64,000 bases of DNA. Origin: Candidatus Saccharimonadota bacterium. GTDB lineage: Bacteria; Patescibacteriota; Saccharimonadia; Saccharimonadales; UBA10212. Below, in pieces: positions 22,733-51,700 of the stretch. The notes beneath the pieces were generated by a model. The model did no database searches. It was not told the DNA's origin and worked only from the letters and a program-made list of their open reading frames with translations. The translations under genes were made by a program, and so were the position numbers. The first letter of the stretch is position 1, and every line of letters starts with the position of its first letter. The DNA lies in the NCBI GenBank assembly GCA_016187125.1, contig JACPKF010000001.1, forward strand, positions 38,931 through 102,930, written 5' to 3'.

Positions 22733-22892
22733 CAGGCAACCTCCGGTTGCAGCAATAAGCCCGCCTTTGCCATGGCTACGGCGGATAGACAATAAGCAAT
22801 AAGCCATAAGCCAGTCCGTTTAAGCGGACTGCTAAGTTGCAATCCTTTTTGCATTTTGCATTTTGCATTTTGCTGAAAAATGTTGAGCATTT
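22733..22892 (-). repeat. rpsK-rpsD spacer containing the 60-nt repeat copy (22748-22812), a GTCCGTTTAAGCGGAC hairpin and three GCATTTT repeats
   Basis: 22748-22812 is near-identical to 23875-23938. Confidence 0.75.
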
Positions 22893-23859: not shown

Positions 23860-23985
23860 GTGCGAACTCCGTTCGCGGTAATAAGCCCGCCTTTGCCATG
23901 GCTACGGCGGATAGACAATAAGCCATAAGCCATAAGCCTTCTTGCTTTATGCTTCTTGCTCTACGCTTAAAAATGCTACGCATTT
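23860..23985 (-). repeat. rpmJ-rpsM spacer containing the second 60-nt repeat copy (23875-23938)
   Basis: TAATAAGCCCGCCTTTGCCATGGCTACGGCGGATAGACAATAAGCCATAAGCC. Confidence 0.75.
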
Positions 23986-24102
23986 TCAGCCTTGCCTCTG
24001 TTTATGCTTAGGTTTTTTCTTATTAATAATATATACTCGTCCCTTACGGCGGACGACTTTGTCATCCGGACTAATTTTTTTGACGCTAGCACGCACTTTC
24101 AT
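23986..24102 (-). CDS. rpmJ: 50S ribosomal protein L36 (Cys-less, zinc-independent type)
   Basis: Below the ORF-track size cut-off. My translation is [43 protein letters not shown] lies upstream. Confidence 0.85.
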
Positions 24103-24227
24103 CCCGTTAGACCTCCGCTCCGCGGCATCCCGTTAGAGGCAAGAATTGGGAAAATTCTGCCGGTTCGCTAATGCGAACCGGGCCTCTAACGGGATTAGGT
24201 CTAACGGGATGAACCCCGTTAGAAGCC
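24101..24227 (-). promoter_or_regulatory. nested inverted-repeat RNA structure overlapping the rpmJ SD/AUG (five copies of CCCGTTAGA/TCTAACGGG)
   Basis: Perfect pairings are 24101-24113 with 24198-24210, 24127-24140 with 24182-24195, and an alternative TCTAACGGG at 24200-24208 with CCCGTTAGA at 24215-24223. Inner hairpins span 24142-24158 and 24160-24181. Confidence 0.6.
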
Positions 24228-24371
24228 CAATTTGTTTGCAAATCGGCAAATATTCCGCTTCTAATCGGGGTCACGCTAATAGTTAGGTTGTTAGTCGTTG
24301 CACGCATTCTAATCCCCTTCTATGGATTTACTGCGGATCCGCTAAATTTATTAGCGAACACACTGCTTAAA

Positions 24372-24593
24372 TCAATTTTCGCGGTAAGTTATCCGACCCT
24401 TCGTCAGATCGTAAGGTGTCAATTCTACCTTAACGCGGTCTCCTGGCACGAGGCGAATATAGTGCTTACGCATCCTGCCGGCTATGTGAGCCATAATTAT
24501 ATGGCCGTTTTCGAGTTCAACTCGGAACTGGGTACCGGGTAGAGCCTCTACGACTGTACCAGCCAGTTCAATTACCTCTTTTTCACGGGCCAT
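24372..24593 (-). CDS. infA: translation initiation factor IF-1
   Basis: [71 protein letters not shown]. Confidence 0.93.
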
Positions 24594-30217: not shown

Positions 30218-30604
30218 TTATTTAAGTTCCTTACCACTAGACTTCAAGATACGTCGTTTCGAGCCGTCGTTAAAAGATTTAAAACCGATTCTTGAAGGTT
30301 TTTTTGAACCAGAATCAAGTAGACCAACTTTGCTTACCCAGATCGGCTTGGTGATTTCAATAATTCCGCCTTGAGGTGATAGGCGAGCCGGTTTTTTGTG
30401 GCGTTTGACGATGTTAATACCTTCCACGGTAACTTTATTCAGAGCCGGATGAATTTGAAGTATTTTTCCGGTATGGGCTTTATACTTTCCGCTTCTAATC
30501 ATTACTTCGTCGCCTTTTTTCAACCGAATCTTATACACCTTTTTGGTTATCGCTTTTTGCCTGTCCACCGTAGCCTTGGCGAAGGCGGACTTTTTGCTTG
30601 TCAT
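30218..30604 (-). CDS. rplX: 50S ribosomal protein L24 (N- and C-terminally extended as called)
   Basis: [30 protein letters not shown] core. The ATG overlaps the rplN stop (ATGA). The first 25 codons contain the 32-nt repeat element, so the true start is uncertain (alternative GTG near 30529). Confidence 0.85.
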
Positions 30605-31540: not shown

Positions 31541-31673
31541 TACTGATCTCTCTTGCCAATCATAGCAACTAGCAAATAGCAACTAGGAAATAATACTTTC
31601 CCTAATTGCTTATTACCTGCCCGCCATAGCCTCGGCGAAGGAGGGCTAATTGTTAATTGCCTGAACCGCAGCA
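31541..31673 (-). repeat. rpmC-rpsQ spacer, family C, plus a diverged copy of the 32-nt element (31616-31645)
   Basis: CATAGCAACTAGCAAATAGCAACTAGGAAATAA...CTAATTGCTTATTACCTGCCCGCCATAGCCTCGGCGAAGGAGGGC. Confidence 0.6.
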
Positions 31674-48680: not shown

Positions 48681-48769
48681 GAAGCTAGCTGCGATGAATG
48701 TTCGTATCTGATTATTGCTTATTACTATTTGCCTGTCCACCGTAGCCTTGGCGAAGGCGGGCTTATTGC

Positions 48770-51700
48770 TCATGAGGCGGCCTCTTCGCTAGTTTCATCG
48801 TCACTACTACCATTGACCGTTATGCCAGCAGCTAGACCATTATCGTCGATATCAACAGTTGTGGTGTCGTCAAGATGCGCGCTGCTAAATTGATCTGCCA
48901 CGTTGTTATCGGTTACACCGACGTCACCGATTATGCCTACAGGAGGGGTAATCTTAGGCGCATGAGCGGCTTCGTCTTTAATATTGCGGGCCAGAACTTC
49001 TTCGGCGTCAATAATCTTATTGTCACTGGTAAGCAAATCAACTTTAAGCCCAAGGCCCTGAAGTTCTTTGACAAGTACATTGAAGCTTTCCGGTACTTTC
49101 GGTCCTTGGATCGGTGTACTTTTAATAATGCTTTCATAAGCTTTAGCCCGACCATAAACGTCATCAGATTTAATGGTTAGCATTTCCTGAAGGGTATGAG
49201 CCGCCCCATAAGCTTCCAAGGCCCAGACTTCCATTTCGCCAAAGCGTTGGCCGCCGTTTTGGGCTTTACCGCCAAGAGGCTGCTGGGTGACCATAGTATA
49301 TGGTCCCGTAGAGCGAGCATGAATTTTGTCGCTAACCATATGATTAAGTTTAATAATGTACATACTGCCGACTGTTGTACGTTCGGAGAATGCCTGACCA
49401 GTGCGTCCATCATAAAGTTGCTGCTTACCATCGGTAGGCAGTCCTGCCTCCTTTAAGAGGCTTTGGATCTTATCATTTGGTACGCCGTTAAAGGACGGGC
49501 TGGCTACTTTTATGCCGAGTGCTTGGGCGGCCATCCCTAGATGAGTTTCAAATAATTGGCCAATATTCATGCGTGATGGGACACCCAGTGGGTTAAGAAT
49601 GATATCAATCGGCGTGCCACCTTCGTTAAATGGCATATCTTCTATAGGTAGGATTCTAGCAATAACACCTTTGTTACCGTGCCGTCCGCCGAGTTTATCG
49701 CCAACGCTGATTTTGCGCATTTGGGCTACAAAAACCTGAATCTGCATGATAACGCCGGCTTTCAGCTCATGCCCGGAAGCCCGTGAGAAAACTTTAACGC
49801 CAACGACTTTGCCATGCCGGCCGGTGCTCATGCGCTGAGAAGTATCACGAACTTCTTTGGCTTTTTCGCCAAAAATTGCTCGCAGCAAGCGTTCTTCACT
49901 GGAAAGTTCTTGCTCGCCTTTTGGCGTAATTTTGCCCACCAAAATGTCGCTGGGATGAACTTCGGCGCCGATGCGCACAATGCCATCTTCGTCAAGGTGT
50001 CTGAGTGACTCTTCGGAGACGTTAGGAATATCGCGGGTAACAATTTCTGGACCTAACTTGGTTTCGCGAACTTCGGTCATGTAGTCCACGATATGGATCG
50101 AGGTTAGAGTGTCATCTTCAACTAGTCGCCGCGAAATAATAATTGCATCTTCGAAGTTATAACCGGACCAGGGCATAAAAGCTACTAGCAGATCTTTACC
50201 TAGAGCTAGTTCACCATTTTGGGTACTCATACCTTCAATTATCGGCTGCCCGGCTTTGACTCTGTCGCCACTATCTACAACTACGATTTGATTAATGCAA
50301 CTGCCTTCGTTACTGCGCATAAAGTGCACGGGATTGTAGGTAACTTTTTTGCCGGTTTTGTATTTGACGACTACTTCATCAGCCGTAGCTTTTAAGACTT
50401 CACCATCAGCCTCAGCGGTAATTAATTGGCCAGTATTGGCAGCTACTACTTCCTCAAAGCCAGTGCCTACAACCGGACTCTTCGGCTGAATGAGCGGTAC
50501 AGCTTGTCGCTGCTGGTTAGAGCCCATTAAGGACCGAAGCACGTAGTTTTTTTCTATGAATGGCACTAACCCAGCACTACTACCAATGGTTTGGGCGCGG
50601 CTGGCGTCCATATGAGTAATTTCATTAGCGTCAACCTCACCTGGCTCCAAACGATTGCGGACACTTATGCGAGCATCAATAAAGTAGCCGTCTTTGTCGA
50701 TTTCGTTACCGGCGCCGGCAATTACAGCTTGCAATTCCTCCGACGCATCTAGATAAATTATTTGATTGGTAACCTTGGCTTTAACAGGCCAAGTCTTTCT
50801 AGATTTAACCGCTGCTAGCCTCTTGGCAGCAGCGACTGTTATGAGCGCGCCGGCTTTAACAATAGTGGTACCTTTTTCGTTTTCAAGATTAACCGCCGCA
50901 ATATGACCAGGAGCTTCTTTAGGCGTAACAGAATTAATAACTTTTCTATAAGGGGTTTCGATAAAGCCATATTCATTAATACGAGCATAGCTGGCCAAGT
51001 TGAGTACCAGACCGATATTAGCCCCTTCCGGAGTTTCCACCGGACAGATGCGGCCATAATGGGTGGCATGGGCGTCGCGAACTTCAAAGCCGGCCCGTTC
51101 ACGTGATAAGCCGCCTGGCCCCATAGACGAAAGACGGCGTTTGTGTGCTAGTTCGGATAGCGGATTAATCTGGTCCATAAACTGTGACAGCTGAGAACTG
51201 GCAAAGAATTCGCGAACGGCGGCCACAACCGGACGGGCATTTATAAGCTGCGCCGGCGTGACTGTTTCTATATCGGACATCGACATGCGATCTTTAGCGT
51301 TACGCTCCATTCTAAGCAGGCCGATTCGGAACTGACGCTGAACCAGCTCGCCAACTAGTTTGACTCGGCGGTTGGCTAAGCTGTCAATTTCATCACCCGG
51401 TTCCTGAGTGTTATTGAGGCGAATAATTTCGGCAATGATAGCGACGAGATCTTCGATCCGCATTACTCGGTTTGCGGAATTATTAGGCACCTCCAAGTTC
51501 AAGCGTTTATTGAGTTTGTAACGACCGACTTTACCAAAATCGAAGCGCTTAAAGTTGTAAAGCATGTTTTCTATGAGACTCCGGGCATTTTCAACAGTCG
51601 CCAAATCGCCCGGCCGCAGCCGTCTATAGACTTCAATCAAAGCTTCGTTAGTACTGTGCGCCGGGTCCTTTTCTAGCGTTGCATCTACATAACTGTGCTC

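Follow-up and report, generated by a model that had tools for sequence, protein, structure and literature searches.

Several groups of palindromic repeats reside within bacterial transcription units. Repetitive extragenic palindromic (REP) sequences and bacterial interspersed mosaic elements (BIMEs), linked with REP-associated tyrosine transposases (RAYTs), and the palindromic elements of the IS200/IS605 type are extragenic hairpin repeats with a tetranucleotide at the foot, which occur in tandem or nested arrays within operons; REPs are located 3' of stop codons. The palindromic elements of Rickettsia insert in frame, Correia and enterobacterial repetitive intergenic consensus (ERIC) sequences are co-transcribed palindromic repeats, and the hairpin RNAs affect mRNA processing and translation. 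Here we describe a nested inverted repeat located between infA and rpmJ in a ribosomal protein (r-protein) operon of a Candidatus Saccharimonadota bacterium (assembly GCA_016187125.1, contig JACPKF010000001.1), within a stretch of 64,000 nt (64 kb) which is referred to below as the window. We consider it probable (roughly three chances in four) that this repeat is a non-autonomous copy, of about 180 nt, of a palindromic mobile element dispersed in Saccharibacteria and other candidate phyla radiation (CPR) bacteria.

The element shares hairpins, a foot tetranucleotide, a tandem or nested layout and location in operons with the REP/BIME-RAYT and IS200/IS605 systems; REPs are not known to supply start, stop or Shine-Dalgarno (SD) signals that bridge two cistrons. 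Like the Rickettsia, Correia and ERIC repeats, it would be a selfish palindrome, tolerated in transcribed or translated regions by preserving expression. Unlike the Rickettsia elements, it avoids the host open reading frame (ORF) and makes an ORF of its own, predicted to be coupled to both neighbours, and its full-length form has a nuclease. In common with miniature inverted-repeat transposable elements (MITEs), the window copy is short, with terminal inverted repeats, the same 4 nt on both sides (altered by one base at its left end, see below) and no enzyme gene, while longer relatives share its ends and encode an enzyme, and copies are dispersed in related genomes. However, the putative autonomous partner encodes a GIY-YIG nuclease instead of a DDE transposase, and the element is confined to stop/start junctions, where an open frame and translational signals are kept.

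Translational coupling via a buried ribosome-binding site is known from rpmI-rplT of the Escherichia coli infC operon and from the coat and replicase genes of phage MS2. In these cases, as in the element, the downstream ribosome-binding site is paired to a segment crossed by the ribosome of the upstream ORF, whose stop lies beside the start; the coupling device of the element would differ in being imported and portable between unrelated gene pairs. For free-standing GIY-YIG genes of phages, too, ribosome-binding sites buried by RNA hairpins have been described, as have overlaps with adjacent genes that suggest translational coupling (PMC2988022). Such phage genes and the MITE- or REP-like palindromic repeats are the closest analogues of the element, which resembles the free-standing seg-type genes of T4 ('intronless homing') in the placement of a small nuclease gene between host genes, outside any intron or intein, in its presence/absence polymorphism at a given site and, as we see it, in a duplicate of the rpmJ 5' end that is reminiscent of co-conversion or duplication footprints. 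It differs from them in that the nuclease gene is bracketed by an invariant 11-bp inverted-repeat hairpin, in its position on ATGA overlaps at many unrelated cellular (CPR) junctions, in its apparently portable coupling signals, in its abundant nuclease-less derivatives, and in the size of the nuclease (approximately 80-86 aa), which has no recognisable DNA-binding domain.

Dispersal of the element family

The element in the window (approximately 24274-24099) is a composite of hairpin units A, B and C, the last of which is nested in the loop of B; the units share an 11-bp core, AUCCCGUUAGA/UCUAACGGGAU. A single-query protein search with the 66-aa ORF spanning the repeat returned one homolog, which led to a locus (L134) containing a composite (L134:10049-10198) that is about 86% identical to the A+B(C) composite of the window over 150 nt. 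This copy is located between mnmA and alaS; the composite is the best nucleotide match of the two sequences, and their flanks are unrelated. A second copy resides in the same locus at the obg/exonuclease junction (two copies in 20 kb). Locus L001 contains three copies within 9.5 kb, i.e. two near-identical ones of approximately 180 nt, at rpsE/rplO and rplQ/rplM, and one at rpmJ. Unit A of the window, including its loop, aligns to the L001 copies and is homologous to sequences in L134, L135, L144 and L146, and the nested unit C is present both in L134:10049-10198 and in L151. Further copies were identified at rplQ/rplM (L087) and rplO/secY (L086), at rplP/rpmC and immediately downstream of pilN and of gatA in a single genome, GW2011_GWA2_46, and at the orf/dnaN and yidC/jag junctions. 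The family therefore occupies at least 11 distinct junctions, infA/rpmJ included. No description of this element was found in the searchable literature, whose coverage is limited.

The canonical unit begins with (A)UGA followed by AUCCCGUUAGA and an extension; a loop of 37-262 nt separates these from the complementary extension and UCUAACGGGAU, which is followed by G. The 11-bp core, which forms the terminal inverted repeat, is invariant in 34 of 34 distinct units, and the 3 bp beyond it covary (AU/GC/CG/UA), being unpaired in only 0-3 of the 34 units. The covariation score (0.204, versus 0.094 for shuffled alignments) was not reached in any of 500 shuffles. In 1.0 Mb of loci, 93 matches to the motif were detected where 7.6 were expected (12-fold), some of them away from rpmJ, and paired units numbered 103 strand-instances versus one in reversed-sequence controls. 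An rpmJ-specific leader conserved across CPR bacteria had also been considered, and was dropped once copies at other junctions appeared.

Insertion sites and boundaries

Filled sites lie at the stop/start junctions of co-directional genes and have the structure ATGA-element, with the element ending in GGGATGA. All copies have ATGA at the right boundary, and 9 of 10 composites and about 30 of 40 single units have it at the left as well; in the window, the right-boundary ATGA is at 24102-24099. In relatives with empty rpsE/rplO and rplQ/rplM junctions, a single ATGA is present, in the context ...AAATGAAA... (a 4-nt stop/start overlap) or TAATGAAA. Comparison of filled and empty sites indicates that the element is placed directly 3' of ATGA and that it ends in, or duplicates, this tetranucleotide. 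Some relatives have the element at the rpmJ, rpsE/rplO and rplQ/rplM sites and others lack it there; the site upstream of alaS contains a nuclease-bearing copy in L137-L142 and a nuclease-less one in L134. The element is unusual for its codon-level precision of insertion between overlapping genes, and it appears to bring with it the signals that keep both neighbours translated.

GIY-YIG-bearing members

A profile built from five composite ORFs matched 52 database ORFs, about 12 of which are proteins of 110-116 aa, composed of the N-terminal peptide of the element (encoded by unit A and the 5' arm of B), a GIY-YIG domain, and a C-terminus (LMG, then the stop codon) derived from the 3' arm. They score 35-49 bits with Pfam PF01541 (cut-off 22.6), the match covering residues 31-97 of 110-116, and 18-21 bits with the NCBIfam model of group I intron endonucleases (cut-off 56). 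When read from an internal AUG, the nuclease ORF comprises 80-86 aa. In these full-length members it is the GIY-YIG gene that is enclosed by unit B, whose arms (15 bp) bracket it in the DNA and differ between L135 and L138 by compensatory changes. Nuclease-less copies align to these members in unit A, the arms of B, the boundaries and the right end. In L135 the nuclease ORF shares 4 nt with each of its neighbours, yidC and jag, and in L137-L142 it abuts alaS. A divergent lineage (L108, L121, L122) has, at the rpmJ start, a single-hairpin version that encloses an 86-aa GIY-YIG ORF.

No GIY-YIG homolog was found in the window, so the copy residing there is non-autonomous (MITE-like). The GIY-YIG protein may be the mobilising nuclease of the family, acting by homing or ectopic homing, with the conserved arms as its ends. 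The element connects small, stand-alone genes of the GIY-YIG type, which otherwise have no assigned role, with a mobile unit bounded by a hairpin. GIY-YIG proteins have also been reported from non-intron insertions at poorly conserved sites of CPR rRNA genes, insertions in these genes being often intron-like and protein-coding, and removed from transcripts (PMC11270868). The non-intron insertions with GIY-YIG proteins may be related to the element described here, and could even be the same element. A free-standing gene for a 116-aa GIY-YIG protein, without CCCGTTAGA arms, was observed between rplO and secY at L008:3614-3964, and the junctions of r-protein operons seem to be a more general location of small GIY-YIG genes.

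Structure of the window copy

The repeat was noticed in a first-pass annotation, made from the letters of the window alone, which interpreted it as a translational switch of rpmJ. Its count of five motif copies was reproduced exactly, positions included: CCCGTTAGA or its complement TCTAACGGG occurs five times in the window (24103, 24129, 24185, 24200 and 24215), always inside the infA-rpmJ spacer, whereas 0.26 occurrences are expected by chance and none of 100 shuffled sequences reached five. A search allowing one mismatch revealed no excess of CCCGTTAGA in the rest of the window; because of a 1-nt insertion, it overlooked a sixth, degenerate arm located further upstream (GTGACCCCGATTAGAAGCGG, also given as CCCCGATTAGAAGCGG). 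The sixth arm pairs with the fifth motif copy (24214-24227), which the annotation had regarded as a free alternative partner. There are consequently three hairpin units (Table 1), and not two helices with a free competitor.

The helices described in the annotation are real, and the outer one is longer than it proposed. The inner helix of 14 bp is perfect, as claimed. The outer helix is also perfect, but extends over 17 bp instead of 13, and besides the spacer between the SD and the start codon it covers more than the 2 nt of each that had been reported, i.e. 3 nt of the SD, the entire 9-nt spacer, the entire AUG and 2 nt more. In addition to the two small inner hairpins of the annotation, a third one is present between the 3' arms of C and B.

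Table 1. Features of the infA-rpmJ junction in the window (all on the minus strand)
Feature	Coordinates	Sequence	Remarks
Hairpin unit A (left-end hairpin)	24213-24274		-28.9 kcal/mol
Unit A, 5' arm	24274-24255	GTGACCCCGATTAGAAGCGG	sixth, degenerate arm
Unit A, 3' arm	24228-24213	GGGCTTCTAACGGGGT	'fifth copy' of the first-pass annotation
Unit A, inner stem	24246-24227	CCGATTTGCAAACAAATTGG	
Hairpin unit B	24098-24213		-76.9 kcal/mol; encloses unit C in the window
Unit B, outer helix	24213-24197 with 24114-24098	TTCATCCCGTTAGACCT with AGGTCTAACGGGATGAA	perfect, 17 bp
Hairpin unit C	24127-24195		in loop of B; 69 nt (multiple of 3); -42.7 kcal/mol
Unit C, helix	24127-24140 with 24182-24195	ATCCCGTTAGAGGC / GCCTCTAACGGGAT	perfect, 14 bp
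Unit C, two inner hairpins	24181-24160 and 24158-24142		
Small hairpin between 3' arms of C and B	24115-24125	CCGC-GGA-GCGG	kept in C-type variants
SD of rpmJ	24112-24116	GGAGG	element-supplied: other copies have GAGG before TCTAA
Putative relay ORF	24107-24307		66 codons + stop; spans units A, B and C; UAA at 24109-24107, 4 nt before rpmJ AUG
SD-like sequence of relay ORF	24313-24320	GAAGGGGA	5-6 nt upstream of relay AUG; largely single-stranded
Vestige of ancestral Saccharibacteria rpmJ leader	24327-24368		by comparison with 51 short leaders
Leader vestige, box	24368-24358	AAGCAGTGTGT	
Leader vestige, P1 hairpin	24358-24351 / 24345-24338	TTCGCTAA/TTAGCGGA	
Leader vestige, old start context	24337-24327	TCCGCAGTAAA	SD and ATG both lost
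infA	24372-24593		upstream gene of the junction; stop at 24374-24372
rpmJ	23986-24102		L36, 38 aa, no Cys; ATG at 24102-24100

The predicted structure is very stable: a 151-nt segment folds at -81.2 kcal/mol (z = -8.7) and the entire spacer at -132.8 kcal/mol (z = -9.6). The SD and AUG of rpmJ have an unpaired probability of about 0, and forced opening of 24118-24098 costs 28.8 kcal/mol. With its ribosome-binding site buried in this way, the translation of L36 is very probably governed by the structure.

The proposed relay ORF

A single ORF traverses the whole element. Its first codon is the ATG in a decayed duplicate of the 5' end of rpmJ (MRATTNNL...); the ORF covers both arms that close the ribosome-binding site of rpmJ, and has its stop adjacent to the rpmJ start. 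The start region is accessible, with predicted unpaired probabilities of 0.95-1.0 for the GAAGG of the SD-like sequence and 0.97 for the first base of the AUG. Other copies likewise have homologous ORFs that traverse the element. An open frame was found in 5 of the 5 composite copies tested (the chance of this being 0.03-0.10 in four and 0.41 in the fifth), and four further composite copies are called as ORFs; among 25 non-redundant single-unit copies, 12 reach the 3' arm, versus 5.0 expected. The indels that distinguish the ORFs of the window and L134 are of 9 and 3 nt. Across the copies, the element contains an AUG overlapping the upstream stop, an open frame, a GAGG or GGAGG SD, and the downstream AUG itself. 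The stop of its ORF lies 4-5 nt before this AUG or overlaps it, as UGA in nuclease-bearing copies.

We propose that rpmJ is expressed by a translational relay through the ORF of the element. Ribosomes would start at an accessible AUG; in the window this would be the former start of rpmJ (24307), and in other copies the AUG contained in the left-hand ATGA, which overlaps the stop of the upstream gene. They would then translate through units A, B and C, melting the hairpins, and stop at the UAA just past the element-supplied SD, whereupon the same ribosomes or fresh subunits would initiate on rpmJ. Such a built-in relay would make insertion non-polar for the host and would allow the element to be expressed from host operons; if it operates, the element represents a natural, portable cassette for translational coupling. 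A reading of MNPVR... as a conserved leader peptide was dropped, since the nucleotides are conserved even where there is no AUG and the conservation of the peptide coincides with the arms.

Alternative explanations

Several observations weigh against our interpretation. The window contains only one locus of the element, its multi-copy status being apparent in relatives, and the left boundary of this copy is GTGA and not ATGA. The metagenome scan that yielded 48 loci (with infA 31-96% identical to that of the window) used the motif fused to the rpmJ start as its pattern, and its bias inflates the apparent abundance of the element at rpmJ. The two-sided ATGA fits a target-site duplication and a target combined with the element end equally well, and it could also result from a survivorship filter. 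As regards the relay, the ORF in the window starts 64 nt past the infA stop, without overlap, and in 13 of the 25 single-unit copies the loop contains an early stop, which means that the relay ORF need not be full-length; its openness among homologous copies is partly inherited and not independently selected, and the conserved residues coincide exactly with those that the arms encode. In the case of the nuclease, only the catalytic domain was matched, and the DNA-binding domain of characterised GIY-YIG homing enzymes is absent; in I-TevI and the Seg proteins, the nuclease domain is joined to a DNA-binding domain. Membership in the family, its dispersal, the rule at the boundaries, the association with the nuclease, the covarying helix and the burial of the rpmJ ribosome-binding site are shown by the data above; the relay and, with less confidence, the role of the GIY-YIG protein in mobility are what we infer. 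Only tentatively, and at odds somewhat worse than even, do we suggest an undescribed class of CPR 'operon-junction' mobile element: a nuclease of about 80 aa within an invariant 11-bp hairpin, which targets ATGA overlaps, carries a portable relay with an obligatorily open frame, parasitises operons (especially those of r-proteins) without polarity, and spawns nuclease-less derivatives such as the window copy.

The first-pass annotation read the repeat as a leader of rpmJ, or of the downstream alpha operon, in which mutually exclusive sequestrator and anti-sequestrator helices exert translational control. On such a reading, a riboswitch-like ligand or an autoregulating r-protein would toggle between the pairing of copy 2 with copy 5 and that of copy 1 with copy 2. 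Like the r-protein leaders and riboswitches of Rfam, the repeat lies 5' of an r-protein gene and is structured, with the ribosome-binding site occluded inside a perfect helix; a 9-bp alternative pairing is possible on paper, and a hairpin with the same core occurs at the rpmJ start in many divergent genomes. Nevertheless, the fold in which the anti-sequestrator is forced has -111.4 kcal/mol, which is 21.4 kcal/mol above the minimum free energy (-132.8 kcal/mol), and in the latter fold the supposed competitor (copy 1) is paired with its own upstream partner. The system thus lacks the near-isoenergetic alternative fold, as well as the gene specificity and conservation at the locus, that would be expected of such leaders: about 55 of 70 relatives do not have the arms in the orthologous spacer, and the composite is also found at mnmA/alaS and nine other junctions, with unrelated genes downstream. 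Rfam 15 gave no relevant match in the window at the gathering threshold or at E<=10, and none at E<=1 for eight canonical loci (only tRNAs and noise were recorded overall). An alternative helix that is energetically irrelevant and arms that are not conserved at the locus are two outcomes that the annotation had itself named as grounds for abandoning its model. The perfect helices of 14-17 bp and the nuclease-bearing relatives suit a mobile element and not a sensor, and we regard the regulatory leader as very improbable. What survives of the claim of translational control of L36 is the burial of the ribosome-binding site; a regulator specific to L36 or to the alpha operon is not supported by an element that is dispersed, and mostly absent at this locus. 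A tempting false positive is thereby removed, a nested repeat over an r-protein start being probably selfish DNA and not a new riboswitch.

Other explanations accept the element but assign different roles to its parts. The hairpins could be mainly processing sites of the RNase III type, comparable to intervening sequences, with cleavage of the long helix separating the infA and rpmJ transcripts and freeing or destroying the ribosome-binding site of rpmJ, so that no relay would be needed. Coaxial perfect helices of 17 and 14 bp are good double-stranded RNA substrates for RNase III. In CPR rRNA genes, as mentioned above, GIY-YIG proteins are encoded in non-intron insertions, and insertions in these genes are reported to be removed from transcripts (PMC11270868). 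We consider this explanation rather unlikely, since it leaves unexplained the excess of open frames, the frame-preserving indels, the overlap of ATGA with the upstream stop, the placing of the relay stop 4 nt ahead of the AUG and the element-supplied SD, although the relay and cleavage of this type could coexist. The conservation of the frame is likewise unexplained if the host simply tolerates a poorly translated rpmJ. That the 66-codon ORF is a genuine gene for a functional small protein, with incidental hairpins, might be argued from its being open in all composite copies and from the 52 database ORFs matched by its profile. This seems barely credible, however: the conserved PIRS, TSNG, YPVR and AEV-stop map exactly to the RNA arms, variants do not resemble one another in the parts encoded by the loops, Pfam has no corresponding family, and both length (41 to 85 aa) and content vary. 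Finally, the family might be mobilised by a hairpin-recognising HUH/Y1 transposase of the IS200/IS605 or REP-RAYT type, or by another enzyme acting in trans, with the GIY-YIG gene as cargo or a secondary invader of the loop. The build of the element is indeed REP-like (its hairpin has an invariable ATGA 5' of the foot, and the element end repeats this tetranucleotide), and many copies have no nuclease. No Y1 transposase was noticed in the loci, in which no systematic search aimed at one was made, and the GIY-YIG gene lies inside a hairpin in three independent contexts and two architectures (yidC/jag, x/alaS and the single-unit form at rpmJ), which argues for a stable association and makes mobilisation of this kind, in our opinion, an outside chance.

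Orthologous infA-rpmJ loci

A search with SecY yielded 80 loci (63-83% identity), nearly all titled Candidatus Saccharibacteria or Saccharimonadales. In about 55 of the 70 Saccharibacteria loci having both genes, the infA-rpmJ spacer is of 33-77 nt and contains a different, small conserved leader without CCCGTTAGA-type arms. Three features make up this leader: a UAAGCAGUGUGU box, a hairpin whose loop carries the SD, and CGNAUGAAAGUNCG, a hairpin in which the AUG lies; in 51 leaders, the base at -2 covaries with the wobble position of Val-3 (CG 41, UA 8, GC 2, none broken). MAFFT/RNAalifold recovered only the start-codon hairpin, the P1 hairpin being recognised by eye. The short leader (L002-L080) is not in Rfam.

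In the window, a vestige of this ancestral leader (Table 1) is followed by the decayed duplicate of the rpmJ 5' end and then by the repeat. The duplicate (24296-24310; MRATTNNL / MEIRATSRKLS) was also observed in L143, L091, L101 and L031. Its position upstream of the element suggests that about 45 nt of the target gene were duplicated, or co-converted, on insertion. The relative that is closest at this locus, L143, shares the pseudo-rpmJ start; its units A+B lack a nested C and differ in the loop of B, which points to exchange between copies. A CCCGTTAGA arm pairing with the rpmJ start is found in a minority of relatives (L001, L026, L031); in L044 and L063 the 5' arm is missing and just the 3'-arm motif (TCTAACGGG or TCTAAAGGG) precedes the rpmJ AUG, and a more diverged version is present in L023.

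Two other families of long structured inserts were observed in the infA-rpmJ spacer of other Saccharibacteria, one being a hairpin of about 110 nt common to L007:5806-5956, L037:5838-6011 and L058:6169-6355; other long inserts are present in L075, L076 and L079. Judging from these sequences, palindromic insertions seem to have a hot spot in this spacer.

Neighbouring genes and other repeats

The gene order on the minus strand is secY, infA, rpmJ, rpsM, rpsK, rpsD. Measurement of the spacers bore out the statement of the first-pass annotation that the infA-rpmJ spacer (269 nt) is the longest of the cluster (the others are of 57, 126, 112 and 85 nt), and its description of L36 as Cys-less is also correct (no cysteine among 38 residues). 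The protein has ISPDD...VYIINKKK where the Cys ligands usually sit, and in all Saccharibacteria relatives checked L36 is 69-95%, mostly 84-95%, identical to that of the window. Neither a promoter-like site nor a terminator 3' of infA was found in the infA-rpmJ spacer, and an intrinsic terminator or internal promoter was dropped as a candidate; an rpmJ promoter inside the spacer, which the annotation had listed as evidence that would contradict it, is thus not apparent. No L30 gene was detected between those of S5 and L15 in any of the loci (1.14 Mb), in a weak search with approximate E. coli and Bacillus subtilis queries, which is consistent with CPR genomes.

A look-up of strain-level variants by exact protein (SecY, S13, L36 and the 66-aa ORF) gave contigs broken within infA or at the rpmJ-rpsM repeat, or no record. 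The short-read contigs of the same strain (L081-L085, from Logan, with identical SecY or S13) all end within infA or at the rpmJ-rpsM spacer, which indicates that these repeats break the assemblies of the r-protein operon. These operons are widely used phylogenetic markers, and the element would explain both widened spacers and assembly breaks in the r-protein operons of reduced CPR genomes.

Another intergenic repeat, 77 nt long and likewise dispersed, is present at 22736-22812 and 23862-23938 of the window (91% identical), where it fills the rpsK/rpsD and rpmJ/rpsM spacers. Other copies in the window are located at 30540-30598, 31596-31654 and 48712-48770 (inverted). It contains a GC-rich hairpin (CCGCCTTTGCCATGGCTACGGCGG) and short repeats of the AATAAGCC type. 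Heptamer-like runs (TTGCTTA, TTGCTAA, TTGCATT) were observed in many spacers of this genome, including at least ten intergenic sites in the window (e.g. 7367, 8227, 19898, 22849, 26253 and 44057).

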